IMG/VR virus record: IMGVR_UViG_3300046523_000117
Origin: a virus
Lineage: Duplodnaviria > Heunggongvirae > Uroviricota > Caudoviricetes
DNA: 53,127 nt
Strand: one strand, 5' to 3'
This document shows positions 5,082 to 24,154 of this stretch, in pieces. The notes beneath the pieces were generated by a model that was given only the letters and a program-made list of their open reading frames with translations, was not told where the DNA came from and made no database searches. Each line of letters opens with the position of its first letter. The stretch's first letter is position 1. The position numbers and the translations under genes are program-made.

Positions 5082-5509
5082 AGCGTTACAATCTTTCCTG
5101 CTCTGATCGGTACTCGACCTTCACCCAGCACAACCATTTGGTATCGGTTATCCCCGAGTTCTATCAATTCTTTCCAATAGGGTTTCCACGGTCCAGTTAC
5201 AAGGAGCGTCCAACATCCATCGCTCTTTGTAATTCGATGATATTCATCCCTTGGGATATAGATCAATCGATTTCTGTTCCGATTAAGCTTTACAATCTTT
5301 TGATCAATTATGATTTCTTCGACGTAATTGCCCTTGAGCAACAGACTGAATGCCCCAAATGAATGGGTGTGAAATCTATCTTGACCACCAGATGTTTGAT
5401 GGAACTGGAATAGTTTGATGCTAAAAAGCTTCTTCCATTCCAGTATCGTTAACTCGGTGACGTTTTGATCACCTAAATTAATCGATTTTCGTTTCCAAAA
5501 TACCATCAT
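5078..5509 (-). CDS. Cupin-fold protein
   Basis: FHTHSF...GNYVEE...EYHRI metal-binding cupin-like motifs. Confidence 0.65.
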   Translation of the reverse strand: MMVFWKRKSINLGDQNVTELTILEWKKLFSIKLFQFHQTSGGQDRFHTHSFGAFSLLLKGNYVEEIIIDQKIVKLNRNRNRLIYIPRDEYHRITKSDGCWTLLVTGPWKPYWKELIELGDNRYQMVVLGEGRVPIRAGKIVTL

Positions 5510-8392: not shown

Positions 8393-8469
8393 TGGTGCAG
8401 TTAACGGGATTCGAACCCGTGTATGAGGAATTTAGAGTTCCCTGCTTTGCCAGACTTAGCTATAACTGC
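8393..8469 (-). tRNA. Amber suppressor tRNA (anticodon CUA)
   Basis: Full cloverleaf GCAGUUA/UAACUGC-ACCA, anticodon arm GGGAA-CUCUAAA-UUCCU. Confidence 0.88.
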
Positions 8470-8474
8470 TTTAA

Positions 8475-8599
8475 CAGGATGGAATTTTATCTACGCGCGT
8501 CTACCAATTCCGCCAACCCGACTCATTGTGCCGGGTGAGGGACTTGAACCCCCAATGTACGTCCGCCAAATGGAATGATTAAATTGCTGTTACCATCCT
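8475..8599 (-). ncRNA. Y-RNA-like RNA 1 (ACAGCA family) with permuted tRNA domain
   Basis: AGGAUGG/CCAUCCU terminal helix + ACAGCA; inside, T arm (GGGGGUUCAAGUCCCUC), then closed acceptor-like hairpin, then D arm (UGGCGGAAUUGGUAGACGC), the YrlA order. Confidence 0.8.
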
Positions 8600-8624
8600 A
8601 AAACTTTTTACATCAAAATCTTTA

Positions 8625-9257: not shown

Positions 9258-9440
9258 TCAGTCAAAAATATTCAAAATATCTGCAACCGCTTCTAAACCA
9301 TCACCTACCGCATCCAGAACCGACCAGCTACTGCTAGAGGATTGGTGCGATTTGTACGGCTGATACACAGGCTTCGGCGTTTCAGCCTCTTGGATCGGTT
9401 GCATCAAATTCTCATCTGATTCGGTCATGCTTATCCCCAA
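9258..9440 (-). CDS. Hypothetical protein
   Basis: Short ORF overlapping the acb1 stop. Confidence 0.5.
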   Translation of the reverse strand: MGISMTESDENLMQPIQEAETPKPVYQPYKSHQSSSSSWSVLDAVGDGLEAVADILNIFD

Positions 9441-9931
9441 GACAGGTCAAGTGATTCTGAATATTCTGTACTGATCACGATCTTGCGTTCTGATAGGAAC
9501 GATACCGGTCCAAGCTGGATCGGGAAATCGCCAATATCATAGGACAAGGTGATGTGTGGAATGAAGCTAGGATGATCCCACGTTCCGTTGTGAATTTCCA
9601 TCAGATCAGCATGTCGAGCCGATAGAAAGTCGCAATCGTATTTCAGGACCAAAGCGTTCTTACCGCTCTGGGTCTTGAACACAGTCAATTCGAACTGATT
9701 GGTGTTAGATGTCGGAGCAACCGGATATTCCCCGAACGGAACATAATTTGGAAGCGGTCTGCGACTGAATAGAAGCGTGCTATGGAATTTCTGAGCATCA
9801 AGAGGATTTGGGATCATCAACGTTTCTTGTAGAAGCCGTAGATCCCGGATCGTGTACTGGTCAAAATGAACCCCAGCATACGTTCCGTGAACCCCTTCGA
9901 TTAAGAAGGGGAGCATTTCAATAAAATTCAA
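9431..9931 (-). CDS. acb1: 2H-phosphoesterase, anti-CBASS nuclease Acb1 / gp57B homolog
   Basis: Two HxT motifs (FHSTLLFSR, PHITLSYD) and GTYAG N-terminus as in T4 gp57B; located beside tRNA cluster as in T4. Confidence 0.85.
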   Translation of the reverse strand: MNFIEMLPFLIEGVHGTYAGVHFDQYTIRDLRLLQETLMIPNPLDAQKFHSTLLFSRRPLPNYVPFGEYPVAPTSNTNQFELTVFKTQSGKNALVLKYDCDFLSARHADLMEIHNGTWDHPSFIPHITLSYDIGDFPIQLGPVSFLSERKIVISTEYSESLDLSWG

Positions 9932-11324: not shown

Positions 11325-12038
11325 TCAAAAGTCGTGCGCGATTTCCAGTTTGTGGAAAATGGCACGGCTGCCCTCGTCGGGCGTGGTTGTTTCGGTTGGG
11401 TCTTCTTGGTTGTAAACACCAGCTTTCATGTACAGTTCGCGAACTGCCCAGCTAGGTTCAAACGCCAAGTCGAGTTTTCCATCACGGCGTAGACCGGTTT
11501 GATCGGTATAGCTCGCATTGAAAATAACTTTCCCGGATTTGGTTACGTGGATAACGAATGTGAATCGAGCCCCAACAGGGATATCTTTCAGCAAAACGTA
11601 ATCTACAGGATTCGGTTGATCAAAAGCTTTACGGAATCCAACAGTCAGTTGACCAATGCCGTCTTCTGCTTTATCAAAAGACAGTTTGACAGGCGGTCGG
11701 GTTGAATCCTTAACGTGGATTTGACCGATAACTGTTTCGCCACCCAATGGAACTTGAACAACCGTCATTGCAACACGTAGCCAATGGTCAGTGAACGCCG
11801 GGTATTTCCAATTGTATGTGGAACCGGTTTCCGTTACTTCACGTAGTTCTGTACGGGTACGACTGGTTGACTTGGTTGATGCGCCCTTGGTCGGTGCCCA
11901 AATACGGATGTCACCATTTGATTCAACGGTGAAGTAATCGTTCTGGGGGAAATTGCCCGGTGCATATGTAATGCAATCATCACTACCGGGGAATTTTGGT
12001 TCGGGTGTAGTGAGATTAAGCAAATTCAACAGGATCAT
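11325..12038 (-). CDS. Polysaccharide lyase family 7 (alginate lyase)
   Basis: PL7 motifs RTELRE, QIH, Y(M)KAGVYNQ. Confidence 0.9.
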   Translation of the reverse strand: MILLNLLNLTTPEPKFPGSDDCITYAPGNFPQNDYFTVESNGDIRIWAPTKGASTKSTSRTRTELREVTETGSTYNWKYPAFTDHWLRVAMTVVQVPLGGETVIGQIHVKDSTRPPVKLSFDKAEDGIGQLTVGFRKAFDQPNPVDYVLLKDIPVGARFTFVIHVTKSGKVIFNASYTDQTGLRRDGKLDLAFEPSWAVRELYMKAGVYNQEDPTETTTPDEGSRAIFHKLEIAHDF

Positions 12039-14068: not shown

Positions 14069-14181
14069 CTGGCTGCATAAACTGTAGTCACCAGACCAGA
14101 GTTAGGATTCTCTGCCGGGGATCGAACCCGGTGATTTTCGTCAAAAGGAAAGTTTAGTTTAATGGGTTGCTGTTAGCAGCC
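14069..14181 (-). ncRNA. Y-RNA-like RNA 4 (ACAGCA family) with T arm
   Basis: GGCUGC/GCAGCC helix + ACAGCA; internal T arm CCGGGUUCGAUCCCCGG followed by closed CAGAG/CUCUG hairpin. Confidence 0.75.
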
Positions 14182-14192
14182 GTTCCTGTTTT

Positions 14193-14959: not shown

Positions 14960-15112
14960 CAGGATGGCACCCTTAAACTTTTGTATCTGAGGTCAATTTC
15001 CGATACGCACACAGTTATTACCCACTGTTCGGTCTAGAATTCCGTCTAGTCGGTACATCTGGAGCCCTATTGGGCGATCAGTATGGTTTGAGGTTTTGCT
15101 GTATTCCATCCT
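14960..15112 (-). ncRNA. Y-RNA-like RNA 5 (ACAGCA family) with non-tRNA multi-hairpin cargo
   Basis: AGGAUGG/CCAUCCU helix + ACAGCA; internal hairpins GCCC/GGGC, CUAGA/UCUAG, ACAGU/ACUGU. Confidence 0.72.
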
Positions 15113-16681: not shown

Positions 16682-16713
16682 ATTCTAACACACTCGAAAC
16701 AGAATCTAAACAC
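16682..16713 (-). promoter_or_regulatory. Phage sigma70-type promoter
   Basis: GTGTTTAGA-N17-TAGAAT. Confidence 0.7.
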
Positions 16714-16728
16714 AATCAAAACAAAATA

Positions 16729-16821
16729 TCTGTAATGCGCTTTAACCAGCGTAAGCTAATGGCCCTGTTAGATAGGCGGGCCGTCCGAATCAAGGGAGTT
16801 GAACCCAAGTTCTCATTACAA
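16729..16821 (-). ncRNA. Circularly permuted tRNA-like element
   Basis: UUUGUAAUG/CAUUACAGA closing helix; T loop GGGUUCAACUCCC, then GGCCC/GGGCC hairpin, then D arm UAGCUUACGCUGGUUAAAGC. Confidence 0.6.
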
Positions 16822-16834
16822 AATTCATCAAATT

Positions 16835-17031
16835 TGGTCGTGGGGGCTGGACTCGAACCAACGACCTTCGGCTTAGTTGCCGATGCTCTTAAAAACCACC
16901 ATCGCTGCAAAGCTTACGCAAGATAGCTAATCCCCGTCCACATTCCAGCCACAGAGGCTCCTAGCGTCTAATCCCCGGTGCGCTCTCCGGCTTTCAACAT
17001 TCGGAATTTAATCCAACTGAGCTACCCCACG
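16835..17031 (-). ncRNA. tRNA-like RNA with ~120-nt insertion in the D loop and 6-nt anticodon loop
   Basis: CGUGGGG/CCCCACG-ACCA acceptor, D stem GCUC/GAGC split by insert (~16891-17009), anticodon arm UCGGC-AACUAA-GCCGA, canonical T arm. Confidence 0.75.
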
Positions 17032-17109
17032 TTGATTTTGGTTTTCGCCTTTACGGTAGACGGGGAACCATCGCGATCCCATAACCGATTAATACGTTTA
17101 CATCAAATT

Positions 17110-17196
17110 TGGCTCCACGAGTTGGACTCGAACCAACAAGACACTAAGGAAGCTCCGTTAACAGCGGAGTGCAGTACCAATTATGCTTATCGTGGA
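17110..17196 (-). tRNA. tRNA-Asn(GUU) with expanded variable loop
   Basis: Loop CU-GUU-AA, G73, CCA. Confidence 0.8.
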
Positions 17197-17327
17197 ATTA
17201 TAAAACTATTTAGTGAGTCGAAATCCAACCCACCAAAGATCGATTCGGATAAACCAGTTACCATCGTTCAATCCACCACCAAGGCGAATCATTCGGTTCT
17301 TGCTATCCATTGGAATCTTAGTCAGGG

Positions 17328-17567
17328 TCATATCAAAATCTCTCTTGGGATTAACTGAGCGCTATGCTCGATGATGTATTTACCACCGGTTTCGGTGAAG
17401 AATTCGACACATATTGGAACAGTGACCGCATATGCAACCCCTAATACCCAATGACCAGTACGGCGTTTACCATCCAACACCATAGGCGGTGAATGGTATT
17501 GTCCATTATGAACAAACGCATGGCACACCAGCGGGTATTTGAAATCTAATAACCGTTTATCGATCAT
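17328..17567 (-). CDS. Hypothetical protein
   Basis: ORF with GAGAG RBS. Confidence 0.6.
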   Translation of the reverse strand: MIDKRLLDFKYPLVCHAFVHNGQYHSPPMVLDGKRRTGHWVLGVAYAVTVPICVEFFTETGGKYIIEHSAQLIPREILI

Positions 17568-17587
17568 ATATCTCTCTCACAATAATT

Positions 17588-17664
17588 TGGTGGGGTCATC
17601 TGGATTTGCACCAGAACCTCCGAGGCTGAATGCCACGACGCTCTCCTAATTGAGCTACAACCCC
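17588..17664 (-). ncRNA. tRNA-like RNA, non-canonical anticodon arm (5-nt loop AUUCA)
   Basis: Acceptor, D and T arms and CCA intact; arm GUGGC-AUUCA-GCCUC. Confidence 0.7.
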
Positions 17665-17733
17665 TTCGTCACCCGATTCTTTCACTTCGGGTCTAGCGAG
17701 TGTTCGTTACCTTAGACATCGGGGTATCGAATT

Positions 17734-17810
17734 TGGCTCCGGTAGCTGGACTCGAACCAGCGACATGACCGTTAACAGCGGACTGCTCTACCAACTGAGC
17801 TATACACGGA
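17734..17810 (-). tRNA. tRNA-Asn(GUU)
   Basis: Cloverleaf, loop CU-GUU-AA. Confidence 0.9.
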
Positions 17811-17832
17811 ATAAAACCTTTACATCAAAATT

Positions 17833-17909
17833 TGGTGGGTTTGGATGGAATTGCACCACCGACGCATCGGGCTTCGACCCAACCGCTCTACTAACTGAGC
17901 TACGCACCC
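17833..17909 (-). ncRNA. tRNA-like RNA, Phe-like but 6-nt loop UCGAAG
   Basis: D/T arms and CCA intact; anticodon arm UUGGG-UCGAAG-CCCGA. Confidence 0.7.
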
Positions 17910-17955
17910 AGATCCGAGAAGTTAACCACTGACTAGTATCGCGGTCTACTTCCCT

Positions 17956-18033
17956 GCTCTGTTACAGATATCACATTCTCATTACATCACCATTCCAGTG
18001 ATGGAGGGATTGCACCCCTGATATAGCAACAGC
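17956..18033 (-). ncRNA. Circularly permuted tRNA-like element
   Basis: CUGUUGCUAUAUC/GAUAUCUGUAACAG closing helix; T-arm-like GGGGUGCAAUCCCU, then CAUCAC/GUGAUG hairpin, then D-like segment. Confidence 0.5.
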
Positions 18034-18059
18034 ATTCTTTTTGATCGTTAGATCGAATT

Positions 18060-18134
18060 TGGTGCGGACGGCTGGAATTCAACCAACACTGTCACCCCGC
18101 AAATGGGGCTGCCTCTACATTGGGCTACATCCAC
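18060..18134 (-). ncRNA. tRNA-like RNA, 6-nt anticodon loop AUUUGC
   Basis: GUGGAUG/CGUCCGC-ACCA acceptor; arm GCCCC-AUUUGC-GGGGU. Confidence 0.65.
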
Positions 18135-18290
18135 TTTGGCCACTGTTCTTTTAAACCGTATACGTGGGTCACGGTACATACTATCCCCGGTTGTGGCTAC
18201 ACCGGCTGGGCTCTTGCTTCCAATGCCGCTAAGCATTTGATGGAATCCTAAGACGGGCCTTACTTCGCCTAATTAGCACTACAGCATGTT

Positions 18291-18370
18291 TGGTGGACCT
18301 GCAAGGAATCGAACCTTGTTGCTTCCGCACCGGGTTACAGCCGGGTGACTCGCCATTTGTCATCAGATCC
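18291..18370 (-). tRNA. tRNA-Tyr(GUA)
   Basis: Loop CU-GUA-AC, enlarged variable arm, CCA. Confidence 0.85.
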
Positions 18371-18374
18371 ATGT

Positions 18375-18666
18375 TCTATTTAGATCGGAGCAAATGGCTC
18401 AACAATCTGGAATTAGTAGCACCGGTAAAGGCTTAGTTCGGGTCCGACGTTGCAACGCCTCGAACTCAGTATGCAATAACTGGACACTTTGTCAGTCAAC
18501 ATGGGTTACATATAATGTCGAACCTATGAAAACTCCATCGGATGGTAACGTCACCCACAAAACCGCCGAGGTTTTATCGATAACCTGAAAACGCCGCCAT
18601 TTAAGGGTTGGTGGACCAACCGACATATCCCTATATGTCAGAGGACTTCGCTGTTTACCCAGCGGA
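18375..18666 (-). ncRNA. Candidate ~290-nt structured RNA
   Basis: Consecutive hairpins CGCUG/CAGCG, GACAUAU/AUAUGUC, GGUUGG/CCAACC, AGUUCG/CGAACU; no credible minus-strand ORF. Confidence 0.5.
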
Positions 18667-18669
18667 ATT

Positions 18670-18764
18670 TGGTGGATCGGATGGACTTACACCATCGTCT
18701 TTGCTACGGCCCGTCTAAACGGTTTCCATCAAACGCAACGCTCTCATACCTGAGCTACTAACCC
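18670..18764 (-). ncRNA. tRNA-like RNA with extended anticodon arm
   Basis: D arm GCUC/GAGC, T-like arm and CCA; anticodon arm lengthened, capped CCGU-UUAG-ACGG. Confidence 0.7.
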
Positions 18765-18770
18765 ATAATT

Positions 18771-18861
18771 TGGTGGGAAGGGGCAGATTCGAACTACCAT
18801 CCTATGACACCCTTCTAGCTAGTGATGTCAATTGCTTTATCCAGCAATAAGCTACCTTCCC
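18771..18861 (-). ncRNA. tRNA-like RNA with extended anticodon arm
   Basis: GGGAAGG/CCUUCCC-ACCA acceptor, T loop UUCGAAU; arm UGACAUC/GGUGUCA with 12-nt loop. Confidence 0.72.
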
Positions 18862-19051
18862 ATATGAACTGGCTGATTAGACCGGAAATAACATCCCATA
18901 CCACTATTTCAGATACTTCGATTATCCCCGCATACGTTCTCATATGCACGATTGAGCGAACCAATCGCAAATCCCCTTTGATATACCCCCTCCGGCTAGG
19001 ACATCTATTTAACGTGCGATGACACAGCTTTCGAGGAATCACCCTCAAAAA

Positions 19052-19138
19052 TGGTAGGTTGTGATGGATTCGAACCACCCGGATTGCCATCACAACCGAA
19101 GTCGAGTTAACAATGCTGTCCCATATAGCAGACAACCC
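19052..19138 (-). ncRNA. tRNA-like RNA whose anticodon arm is a long helix capped by cUUCGg
   Basis: GGGUUGU/ACAACCU-ACCA acceptor, T arm GGUGGUUCGAAUCCAUC; arm AUUGUUA..CGAC-UUCG-GUUG..UGGCAAU. Confidence 0.75.
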
Positions 19139-19144
19139 ATAATT

Positions 19145-19217
19145 TGGTGAGGATCGATGGAATTGAACCATCATTTCCGACGCAAAGCCCCGGTGTCCTA
19201 ACTTAGACGACATCCCC
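19145..19217 (-). ncRNA. tRNA-like RNA, irregular anticodon arm
   Basis: D arm GUC/GAC, T arm GAUGGUUCAAUUCCAUC, CCA; arm CCGG-GGCUUUGCG-UCGG. Confidence 0.6.
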
Positions 19218-19348
19218 ATGTTGATGATTGGGCTCTATTGGTAATCATCAAACCGCAATACCCCTGAACCTTTGGGGGCCACACGCTTATCCCCTTGAGC
19301 GTGGGCAGAAACCGTCGTACCGAAGTACCTAACGAGGGAGTTTCAATT

Positions 19349-19426
19349 TGGTGGGCCGCCCGAGACTCGAACTCGGAACCCCCGGATTAAAAGTCCGGTG
19401 CTACTAACCAATTGAGCTAGCGACCC
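19349..19426 (-). tRNA. tRNA-Lys(UUU)
   Basis: Cloverleaf, loop CU-UUU-AA. Confidence 0.95.
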
Positions 19427-19447
19427 ATGAAACTATTACAACAAATT

Positions 19448-19522
19448 TGGCGACTCTGAACGGATTCGAACCGTCACAACATTGCTAGACAGGCAATTGC
19501 ACTACCGTTATGCTACAGAGCC
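19448..19522 (-). tRNA. tRNA-Asp(GUC)
   Basis: Loop CU-GUC-UA, G73, CCA. Confidence 0.88.
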
Positions 19523-19528
19523 TTTTAA

Positions 19529-19596
19529 CTGGATACCGTCTTTATCTTTCAAGATTAAATGGTTTGAAATATATTTGGGTTTGCTGTTGGTATCCA
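19529..19596 (-). ncRNA. Y-RNA-like RNA 6 (ACAGCA family, short)
   Basis: UGGAUACC/GGUAUCCA helix + ACAGCA. Confidence 0.72.
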
Positions 19597-19600
19597 AAAC

Positions 19601-22448: not shown

Positions 22449-23840
22449 TTACCAGTCGTAGCGGCTGATATTCACGGCTTCCAACATCATAGACATTGGA
22501 GTCATTTCAGGAACATCAGTTTGCGCCAGAACAGCTTTCAGAATTGCAGGGCTGAAACCAGACAGCATACAGGTTCGACCCGCCCCGAATGTAACCGGGA
22601 AGTTCGGTTGATTGGCAGCAACGATCCAGAAAATGATTTCAGGACGTTTGTAGCCAGCGGAAGCATACATGTTGTCGATCATGATATAGGCCGATTCTTT
22701 GTCCCAACCGCGTGCCGCCGAATTGAACTGCATATCCGAAATCAACAGGATCTTGGTTGGCATATCCGAAGCCGGTACACTGTTCTTACGAGCAGTTTCC
22801 AGAATCAAACGGAATGTCTTTTCCAGATCGGTCGAACCGCCCCACGGTGCAGACTTGGTAGTCTGGTAACGCTGGGTCAATGTCTTCTGATTGCTCAGAT
22901 CGATCATTTTCGGATTCGAATCGAAGGTAATGAATTTGTCTTGGAAAGCGCCTTTAGAGCGTTCCGCAACATACATACCCAACGAAATCGCAACATCCAT
23001 CGCAGACAGGTTTGCAGATACCGGCGTGTTCATCGAAGCCGAAACGTCGATAATCGGCAGGATGTTTTCGGTAGAGCCTTCCATGTAGTCAGGCAGAGCC
23101 TTCCACTGGGCATCAGCGATACCGGCAACCCCATTCAACCCACGAATTACATCATATGGGAAAATGGCCCCCGCATTGATCTTGGTCTTGCCAGTTGCCA
23201 GACCGTCGATATATTCCTGATACAGCTCTGGAGTATGGCGACTGAATGCTTTCTGGTAGTTCTTCGCAGCCAGCGATGGAATCTTGCCGAACTCAATTTC
23301 ATCCCATTGCTGGGCGCACATTTGCTGTTCAACAGTCTTCGACAGACCGACGATCAGTTTACGGTATTGACGCTCGGTCAATTCGAAAGCATTCATGAAG
23401 AATCGGGAATACTTCTTGCCTTCACGCGGCATCCATTTTGCTGCAAGACCATTCTTCTCGACCAGTGCCTGAGCAAAGGTTTCAGCGATCACACCGTCGA
23501 TTCGATCCGAATTACCGATCACACCAAACAGGTCATCCCAACGGCCAATCTCTGGAACCTTGGCGATCAGACGAACCACATCCTCGGTGTTATTATGCGC
23601 AAGGCTGATCAACAGCTTACGGAAGGTTTCACGTTCACCAGCACCACCGCGAACATCACGCGCCCATTGAAGGATACGGAATGCAATGTTTCGATCTTCA
23701 CGAACAGCCTTAAAGAAGGCTGGAGTAATGTCCTTACCACGCGAGGAACCAATCTGAGCGAACAGATCGACACACGCATTCAGGGACGATTTCACAGCAG
23801 TCATACCGTTGGTGGTTTGGGTCAGGTTCTGGTAGCTCAT
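22449..23840 (-). CDS. Ro60/TROVE-like helical repeat + vWA protein (DUF2828-type)
   Basis: N-terminal RDVRGGAGER, GRWDDL, LAAKWMPRE helical domain; C-terminal MIDAS DVSASM, GGSTDL, ISDMQF, SGFSP. Confidence 0.82.
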   Translation of the reverse strand: MSYQNLTQTTNGMTAVKSSLNACVDLFAQIGSSRGKDITPAFFKAVREDRNIAFRILQWARDVRGGAGERETFRKLLISLAHNNTEDVVRLIAKVPEIGRWDDLFGVIGNSDRIDGVIAETFAQALVEKNGLAAKWMPREGKKYSRFFMNAFELTERQYRKLIVGLSKTVEQQMCAQQWDEIEFGKIPSLAAKNYQKAFSRHTPELYQEYIDGLATGKTKINAGAIFPYDVIRGLNGVAGIADAQWKALPDYMEGSTENILPIIDVSASMNTPVSANLSAMDVAISLGMYVAERSKGAFQDKFITFDSNPKMIDLSNQKTLTQRYQTTKSAPWGGSTDLEKTFRLILETARKNSVPASDMPTKILLISDMQFNSAARGWDKESAYIMIDNMYASAGYKRPEIIFWIVAANQPNFPVTFGAGRTCMLSGFSPAILKAVLAQTDVPEMTPMSMMLEAVNISRYDW

Positions 23841-24146: not shown

Positions 24147-24154
24147 TATTTATA
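24147..24154 (-). promoter_or_regulatory. T4-type late promoter TATAAATA
   Basis: Exact gp55 consensus; also overlaps the -10 of a GTTTAGA-type promoter. Confidence 0.7.

Follow-up and report, generated by a model that had tools for sequence, protein, structure and literature searches.

A 53,127-nucleotide (nt) stretch of viral DNA (Caudoviricetes; IMG/VR record IMGVR_UViG_3300046523_000117), referred to here as the window, contains between positions 17,588 and 19,217 seven CCA-ended, tRNA-like elements, all on the minus strand, in which the anticodon arm has been rebuilt. As judged from comparison of eight related genomes, these elements are cassettes that have been shuffled from one fixed slot to another, with spacer RNAs, themselves conserved and structured, lying between the slots; the comparison supports selection rather than decay. 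The interpretation we tentatively favor is that they are tRNA chassis showing variable payload arms, mostly uncharged and likely to act as decoys against tRNA-directed defense. The seven elements were recognized in an initial annotation made from the window's letters; an eighth, 197-nt element (16835–17031), the conserved spacer RNAs, the slot shuffling and a nearby gene for a Ro60-fold protein go beyond it.

The window comes from the genome of a T4-like phage, with genes for the gp45 clamp, RpbA, gp46/47-like proteins, baseplate components, a late sigma factor and Acb1. ARAGORN identifies 28 genes in a minus-strand array spanning 5.5 to 26.5 kb of the window, inside which the seven elements lie; most of the segment between tRNA-Lys (19349) and the 197-nt RNA is non-coding. 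The closest isolates are the Pseudomonas phages Astolliot (L001) and Milchi (L002), and it is from isolates only that a Pseudomonas host is deduced. As these two are given as 86% identical (PMC11780129), together they weigh little more than one sample. The comparison set comprises the window, L001, L002, the IMG/VR contigs L004, L005, L006 and L015, and the metagenome contig L034; tRNA-shaped elements of this kind occupy the same place in all seven related genomes found (8/8 including the window). Pattern scans for relatives returned the same four IMG/VR contigs and one new metagenome contig, and an 18-mer search of genomes gave three matches, within chance. A contig of depth 414 is identical to the window over 16700–19500, and the sequencing run concerned may be the window's own source. 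Across the eight genomes, 55 non-standard CCA-ended elements were picked by eye. With five lacking the T-loop consensus removed and the eight 197-nt RNAs handled separately, a curated set of 42 odd copies remained, which was compared with 183 ARAGORN tRNAs ending in CCA from the same sources (the whole window; 12–21 kb per locus). Copies share descent, so p-values overstate their independence. Further CCA-ended hairpin elements without a standard T loop, excluded from the counts, lie at L001:9707–9780, L001:10105–10171, L002:11517–11676 and L034:3178–3255.

Acceptor, D and T stems and a 3′ NCCA are present in all seven cassettes (Table 1), as initially described, with the qualification that three acceptors are imperfect: 17833 has two mismatches (the same in all three copies), 18670 a bulge and 19145 a G·G. 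None of the seven cassettes (0/7) and 3/42 odd copies combine a 7-nt loop containing Y32, U33 and R37 with a stem in which four or more of the five positions pair, as against 163/183 ARAGORN tRNAs, confirming that the seven lack a canonical loop, as first reported. The loop sizes first assigned can be read as such, but they vary with the closing pairs drawn: an 8-nt U33 loop is one reading of 17833 and a 7-nt A33 loop one of 17588, and 19145 can be taken as a canonical-length arm with C33. The helix of 19052 is capped by cUUCGg in the window, but the cap is absent from its one homolog and the minimum free energy structure of the whole molecule is not a cloverleaf. G18G19 and a UUC T loop are both present in 19052 and 18771, the other five having A18/G55 or other combinations. 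ARAGORN, expected to return undetermined or pseudo calls, leaves four uncalled and reports two as undetermined, but one as Glu; the Rfam RF00005 gathering score is reached by three of the seven in one search and by 18771 in another. The window has its own canonical tRNAs for most amino acids, among them Lys(UUU), Glu(UUC), Phe, Gln and Tyr, so the cassettes fill no decoding gap.

Table 1. Cassettes, spacers and associated features of the window, with homologs given as genome:position
Feature	Coordinates	Strand	Description	Homologs
tRNA-like cassette	19145–19217	-	Glu-type D arm, 4-nt variable loop; canonical-length arm with G32, C33, UUU, G37, C38 and G·G mismatch	L015:14535, L034:3096 (central UUC)
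tRNA-like cassette	19052–19138	-	Anticodon arm replaced by long helix; UUCG cap in window copy only	L004:15047 (helix G-C to A-U change)
tRNA-like cassette	18771–18861	-	7-bp stem and 12-nt loop	L004:15324 (loop identical, stem C-G to U-A, acceptor stem different)
tRNA-like cassette	18670–18764	-	43-nt arm, bulged acceptor, G3·U70, G55	L034:2711
tRNA-like cassette	18060–18134	-	5-bp stem, 6-nt loop	L004:16305
tRNA-like cassette	17833–17909	-	Extended stem, 4/6/8-nt loop, A18/G55 elbow, two acceptor mismatches	L004:16530, L034:3628
tRNA-like cassette	17588–17664	-	5-nt loop closed by C-G, A18/G55 elbow	L005:15612, L006:15297, L015:15230, L034:3831
Spacer RNA A	19218–19348	-	Multi-hairpin, upstream of cassette slot; 6/8 genomes, 70–86% identity	
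Spacer B	18862–19051	-	Non-coding; common to L004 and relatives in sequencing runs	
Spacer RNA C	18405–18669	-	About 265 nt; conserved central motif; 7/8 genomes	
Spacer RNA D	18135–18290	-	Terminal helix and predicted H-type pseudoknot directly before cassette slot; 8/8 genomes	
Spacer RNA E core	17955–18034 (spacer E 17910–18059)	-	tRNA-elbow module in circular permutation, with T arm, closed hairpin, D-like loop and closing helix in that order	
Spacer F	17665–17733	-	Followed by an odd cassette in four genomes and by a true tRNA-Asn in four	
197-nt CCA-ended tRNA-like RNA	16835–17031	-	C1-G72, structured D-loop insert of about 120 nt, 6-nt loop at anticodon position	
DUF2828 protein with Ro60/TROVE fold	22449–23840	-	Same array, 3.2 kb upstream of the cassettes	

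The stems of the odd copies are as intact as those of true tRNAs, with 282/294 acceptor, 203/210 T and 160/164 D pairs kept, compared to 1246/1281, 897/915 and 703/706 in the controls. In 12 comparisons of window elements with homologs, 38 stem pairs differ (the bulged 18670 acceptor was excluded, and one change may be counted more than once). Thirty-one of these still pair, through 19 two-sided and 12 one-sided changes; the remaining seven involve a mismatch, two of them being the window's own G·G, which is repaired in a relative. The covariation looked for in related phages is therefore present, and the homologs are just as odd as the window copies, so that the case in which relatives carry ordinary tRNAs does not apply. 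The claim that the arms stay paired holds in part: two-sided changes occur in the arms of 19052 and 18771 as well, but only two of the seven isolated arms fold better than 95% of shuffles and three fold no better than shuffles (clade-wide, z<0 in 35/42 and p≤0.05 in 13/42). A73 and CCA are each retained in 41/42 copies, the homolog at L004:15324 having lost CCA. In 16/42 odd copies G55 replaces U55, with A18 in 13 and G18 in none, and 0/183 tRNAs have G55. Positions 18 and 55 switch together, in both directions, in the 17588 family and in the GGGGAAU family, indicating that the D/T elbow is maintained. Intact stems, pair-preserving changes, retention of A73 and a covarying elbow together support selection on the seven elements and their clade homologs, as first proposed. 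Descent as decaying pseudogenes left behind by array recombination, to which some acceptor mismatches, the CCA-less L004:15324 and the three weakly folding arms might point, is highly improbable given these features and their presence in 8/8 genomes, and is largely refuted by the covariation.

Conservation of the spacers contrasts with exchange of the elements behind them. Spacers that are 93–100% identical can stand before arms only 25–71% identical; between L005 and the window, spacer D is 96% identical and the arm behind it 25%, and between L004 and the window the corresponding values for spacer F are 96% and 41%. Slot D holds five cassette families across the eight genomes. Because six families are found at two or more slots and the order differs between the window and L034, shuffling rather than deletion alone is indicated. 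Relatives in sequencing runs X3, X7, X9 and X11 likewise keep the spacers and have the cassettes replaced. Tandem cassettes with 6-nt gaps and no spacer also occur (19145/19052 and 18771/18670). In spacer C, a segment lying about 230 nt downstream of a 5′ hairpin is complementary to the hairpin's loop, predicting a long-range pseudoknot, both halves of which co-change in L001 and L002; this spacer has no Rfam match. Spacer D has three loop variants, each with a matching complementary 3′ strand; taken whole, it does not fold better than its shuffles, and the structure is therefore supported by covariation only. The spacer E module was found in 7/8 clade genomes (descriptor search; RNAalifold), with A18/G55 in four and G18/U55 in three. 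Only 3 bp of its closed hairpin are conserved and it has no D stem. Three more descriptor matches, found at unrelated loci, resemble portions of ordinary tRNAs.

The payload arms also persist on different chassis. One 12-nt loop is invariant in L004, L006, L001 and L002 though the L004 chassis differs, with an A-U to G-C change in the stem, and the loop shared by 18771 and L004:15324 sits on acceptors that differ at four pairs. Conversely, the chassis of phage KVP40 pseudo-tRNA-4 agrees with that of L015:14998 at 56 of its 58 positions, and the two that differ make up a single compensated pair, yet it bears an unrelated, longer insert. Chassis and payload thus behave as separable modules, a pattern that supports, without proving, a function for the payload. 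Two further patterns were set aside. Pairing of 19145-type with 17833-type loops, which are complementary over 6–8 nt, was rejected as the two co-occur in only 2/4 genomes holding either, and CAU recurring at the loop starts of four families was too weak to use.

The T-stems suggest that the odd copies would bind EF-Tu poorly. Pair 51:63 is U-A in 30/42 and G-C in 0/42 odd copies, against 20/183 and 65/183 tRNAs. With the measured increments of PMC3239215 (Table 2 therein), the mean predicted affinity is −9.09 kcal/mol for odd copies (36/42 scorable) and −9.93 kcal/mol for tRNAs (165/183 scorable). No odd copy is predicted to bind more tightly than −10 kcal/mol, compared to 81 tRNAs, and 16 family means differ from 23 anticodon-class means with p = 7.5e-6. 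The seven cassettes range from −8.1 to −9.5 kcal/mol; the family with a Glu-type D arm has a weak T-stem in 7/7 copies (mean −9.47, against −10.61 for the phages' tRNA-Glu). Loop anatomy and these predicted T-stem strengths support a non-ribosomal character for the cassettes, in line with the initial annotation. Charging is likewise expected to be limited. Most synthetases require the anticodon according to the identity table of PMC9976931, with LeuRS (leucyl-tRNA synthetase) needing no anticodon arm, and compared with that table none of the seven has an intact identity set, anticodon identity elements being missing outside 18670. G3·U70, the alanine mark, occurs among the seven only in 18670 (a partial alanine identity) and in 3/42 copies clade-wide; G3-C70 is present in 36/42 and G73 in 1/42, and there is no long variable arm of Leu/Ser type. 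As most synthetases need the anticodon and only 18670 has G3·U70, most cassettes would stay uncharged, and the suggestion that they are aminoacylated draws slight encouragement from 18670 but none from the others. The non-proteinogenic tRNA-Gly species combine a weak EF-Tu T-stem with an intact synthetase identity set; the cassettes share the former, by prediction, and lack the latter.

Two further features lie in the same array. The 197-nt RNA is 197–198 nt long in 8/8 genomes and shows two-sided changes at 15/54 consensus pairs; Milchi's copy, like its cassette copies, is annotated as tRNA-OTHER. The DUF2828 model has a pLDDT (predicted local distance difference test) score of 81, and its top 11 Foldseek matches are all Ro60/TROVE structures. 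The protein is 41% identical to Bas63 gp130, which is reported to counter Ppl defense and to sit upstream of tRNA genes in the PhageMaP preprint (bioRxiv 10.1101/2024.10.10.617714), where it is also suggested that some Bas63 "tRNA" genes are Y RNAs. Phage Ro60 together with Y-like RNAs is described as dampening host polynucleotide phosphorylase (PNPase; PMC12135203). The fetched flanks of 21 more distant DUF2828 loci and pf16, and those of Bas63, KVP40, Aeh1, S13 and DLP6, contain isolated odd genes and no such cluster. Many phages instead have, beside their DUF2828/Ro60-like genes, clusters of short RNAs, each made up of a closing stem, a bulge of sequence ACAGCAA and a hairpin inside it. For these handle RNAs, the distant DUF2828 loci and Bas63 give 58 sense hits (24 with a canonical-type anticodon loop) versus 15 antisense (one), and three such loci show no Rfam family besides tRNA. 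The handle is missing from the seven cassettes, and the single match among the 42 arms lies within a tetraloop hairpin. With the cassette cluster absent from the fetched flanks of distant DUF2828 loci and the handle RNAs tracking the gene instead, the link between Ro60 and the seven cassettes is probably indirect.

The window has handle copies on the minus strand at 19529–19597 (near 19587), near 15102, at 14089–14185 (near 14173) and at 8506–8600 (near 8590); those at 14173 and 8590 run on into T arms and look like permuted tRNAs. Further handle RNAs are present at loci L017, L020, L022, L024, L025, L027, L028 and L059, and inner hairpins often have canonical anticodon loops (Lys, Asn, Tyr, Gly, Arg, Ser). 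The closing helices of minus-strand spacers D (18135–18290) and E (17910–18059) start with AUGCUGU, complementary to the ACAGCA of the handle bulge. The tRNA region also contains, on the minus strand, the Acb1 gene, directed against the cyclic oligonucleotide-based antiphage signaling system (anti-CBASS; 9431–9931), an alginate lyase gene (11325–12038), a high-scoring Rfam tRNA with a CUA anticodon (8393–8469; Pyl by ARAGORN, possibly an amber suppressor), a tRNA-Asp with U37 that recurs in several relatives (19448–19522), a tRNA-Tyr with an unusual D arm and 8–9 linker (18291–18370), and a tRNA-Asn with a long variable arm (17110–17196) beside a normal tRNA-Asn. In relatives, tRNA-Ile(GAU) has C33 instead of U33 at L006:18123, L015:19703, L034:8331 and L002:15805.

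The cassettes resemble several known RNAs in part. T4 RNA C and RNA D (species 1 and 2; rnaC, rnaD), like the elements described here, are non-decoding RNAs with tRNA-like ends in a T4-like tRNA cluster, and their functions are described as "yet unknown" (PMC9697503). RNA C, whose T arm is preceded by a hairpin carrying a 6-nt loop and which has a large domain on the 5′ side, corresponds in plan to the 197-nt RNA. However, no homology of rnaC or rnaD to the window RNAs was detected, blastn giving T4 tRNA matches only, and T4 has two fixed RNAs, whereas this clade has at least seven full cloverleaves per genome, in many families and shuffled slots. GenBank genes named "tRNA-Pseudo" or "tRNA-OTHER" in KVP40, Aeh1, S13 and Milchi have the same plan of a CCA-ended chassis with a replaced anticodon arm. 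The inserts in KVP40, Aeh1 and S13 (L060:3477–3723 and 5274–5389; L061:22166–22287; L062:19871–20114) are longer and have in common a motif absent from the seven. A literature search gave no function or family description for these genes, and none of this cluster or of cassette shuffling, most subscription journals being outside its coverage; in the accessible part of the Milchi paper (PMC11780129), a tRNA count is the only statement on the matter. The cassettes would be a natural, diversifying version of a laboratory device. In the engineered tRNA scaffold of Ponchon and Dardel, an RNA of interest takes the place of the anticodon arm and reportedly gains processing and stability.

Y RNAs (YrlA/YrlB, phiLo Yrl1/2; PMC4201824, PMC7824862), together with Ro60/Rsr, share with this locus non-decoding tRNA mimicry and a Ro60-fold gene in the array, and spacer E has the permuted YrlA order of T arm, closed hairpin and D (PMC4201824). 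In contrast, the seven are unpermuted, with open CCA ends, no terminal Ro-binding stem and no match to the Rfam Y RNA models. The YrlA motif GNCGAAN0–1G, found near the 5′ end, is absent from the 5′ end of spacer E, and 17833 alone among the seven has a copy (GUCGAAG), in its apical loop. Regarding transfer-messenger RNA (tmRNA), G3·U70 is present in 1/7 and ARAGORN finds no tmRNA. Nuclease-resistant phage tRNAs, such as T5 tRNA-Lys acting against PARIS (PMC11464382; PMC10264068), also have changed anticodon arms within tRNA arrays in a counter-defense setting, but they decode and replace a host tRNA, whereas the seven lack a decoding loop and lie beside canonical counterparts. The cassettes thus lack defining features of decoding tRNAs, YrlA, tmRNA and T5-type replacement tRNAs.

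In the favored reading, the cassettes would be co-transcribed with the tRNA array. AU-rich trailers after CCA guide RNase E, and such trailers follow 40/42 odd copies and 156/183 tRNAs. The host's RNase P would probably cut at +1 and its RNase E behind the CCA, which would release the spacer RNAs too. The products would be stable non-ribosomal RNAs, with weak predicted EF-Tu binding and presumably little charging, to which defense effectors could bind without productive cleavage or loss of translation. Candidate effectors are anticodon nucleases that grip the tRNA body and enzymes that modify the CCA end; CCA-modifying toxins are candidate targets. Promoter and terminator scans gave chance-level results, and exact T4 late boxes lie at 24147 and elsewhere, with none within the RNA island. 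A 261-nt contig covering 17950–18207 with three differences comes from one of two runs guessed to be RNA, of which one is probably DNA, and contigs cannot show transcription. The reading in terms of defense is suggested by the swap-prone, diversifying pattern, by the neighbors (Acb1 and the Ro60-fold gene) and by the growing list of tRNA-directed defenses, which includes PARIS and PtuAB (PMC11464382) and HepS and Schlafen-like nucleases (PMC13434031), and to which PMC10264068 also speaks. T5 tRNA-Lys is reported to protect by replacement, the host tRNA still being cut (PMC11464382). Replacement is closed to non-decoding RNAs, so if the seven act in defense, they would do so as decoys; the nuclease-proof tRNA mimics envisaged by the initial annotation would, as T5-type replacements, have to decode, and for the amino acids concerned the phage is already supplied with canonical tRNAs.

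Several observations weigh against decoys. A documented case of phage tRNA counter-defense, T5 tRNA-Lys, is one of replacement (PMC11464382). The decoy role first proposed is plausible from the cassette swapping, but no target was found: comparing the seven arms with other window sites, the longest complements do not exceed those of shuffles, and comparing arms with Escherichia coli rRNA, tmRNA region and RNase P RNA, which stood in for the host's, gave 5/80 tests at 0.05, three from one family, no more than so many tests would yield. Recent exchange could give identical loops without selection. Several arms fold weakly or have homologs in one genome only, and the true tRNA-Asn in slot F in 4/8 genomes fits a role for shape only. 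The phages' own Trp, Ile and Tyr tRNAs are predicted to be equally weak EF-Tu binders (−8.87, −9.22 and −9.27), G49C65/G50U64 stems are reported to be non-additive (PMC3239215), and a weak T-stem with A73 may be inherited from an Ile/Val/Phe-like ancestor. A18/G55 was rejected as a mark specific to the mimics, as ordinary phage tRNAs with normal anticodons carry it; the search that found these forced both bases and is no test of covariation.

It is tempting to extend the decoy interpretation to two arsenals: bodies lacking an anticodon loop, supplied by the cassettes, and anticodon loops lacking a body, supplied by ACAGCAA-handle RNAs that the Ro60-fold protein would hold. Each cassette family would then sponge a different tRNA-cleaving or CCA-modifying defense and be swapped between slots like an anti-defense gene, in a modular counter-defense island built of RNA only; this extension is doubtful. 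Alternatively, the tRNA shape may be no more than a signal for RNase P and RNase E to cut, freeing functional spacer RNAs, with arms left to drift provided they fold and do not decode. The conservation of spacers A, C, D, E and F with covariation, and the end of the predicted spacer D pseudoknot right at the cassette 5′ end, are as this would have it, and it accounts for fixed slots, the tRNA-Asn in slot F and hypervariable arms. We nevertheless consider it unlikely, as spacer-free tandem cassettes exist, payload loops are retained on different chassis and in phages with Ro60-like proteins only about 58–65% identical to the window's, and the many true tRNAs of the phage could serve the purpose. 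That the cassettes are Y-RNA-like partners of the Ro60-fold protein, in particles for RNA repair, PNPase control or counter-defense, is improbable. The fold of the 22449–23840 product, the Y RNAs suggested for Bas63 in the PhageMaP preprint, the YrlA-type order of spacer E and the apical GUCGAAG of 17833 are in keeping with such particles, but the unpermuted cassettes with free CCA ends match no Rfam Y RNA, no such cluster accompanies the 21 more distant DUF2828 loci or Bas63 in the fetched flanks, and the handle RNAs are likelier partners.

A role as altered but working decoders, either nuclease-resistant tRNAs or frameshift or four-base decoders, is improbable too. The arms of 19145 and 18060 are of canonical length, 17833 allows an 8-nt loop with U33 (ARAGORN cgaa), four tRNA-Ile genes of relatives have C33, a complete 5-bp stem with a U33 loop is seen in three of the relatives' odd copies, and anticodon-loop changes have been proposed as nuclease evasion (PMC10264068). 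However, three arms (18670, 18771 and 19052) are much too long for decoding, the cassettes lack synthetase identity sets, T-stems are predicted to be weak, central triplets vary inside families, and canonical tRNAs for those amino acids are present. Quite improbable, finally, is a role away from the ribosome in which aminoacylated cassettes would serve a tRNA-dependent transferase as donors, comparable to the staphylococcal non-proteinogenic tRNA-Gly. The shared acceptor (G3-C70 and A73), altered elbow, weak T-stem and reported independence of LeuRS from the anticodon arm would suit donors, but the scarcity of G3·U70 and G73 and the lack of a Leu/Ser-type variable arm would not; arm diversity would be unexplained, and no transferase was recognized among the 40 + 16 window proteins scanned.

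For decades, phage pseudo-tRNAs and the T4 RNAs C and D have carried annotations that assign them no function, and this clade provides a natural comparative set whose chassis, payloads and positions vary independently of one another. Should the arms be decoys, phages would have a second route against tRNA-directed immunity, RNA sponges, beside replacement tRNAs; if the cassettes instead mark cut sites, the five spacer RNAs would be new structured RNA families. In either case, gene finders mislabel or miss most of a 2.5-kb RNA island.

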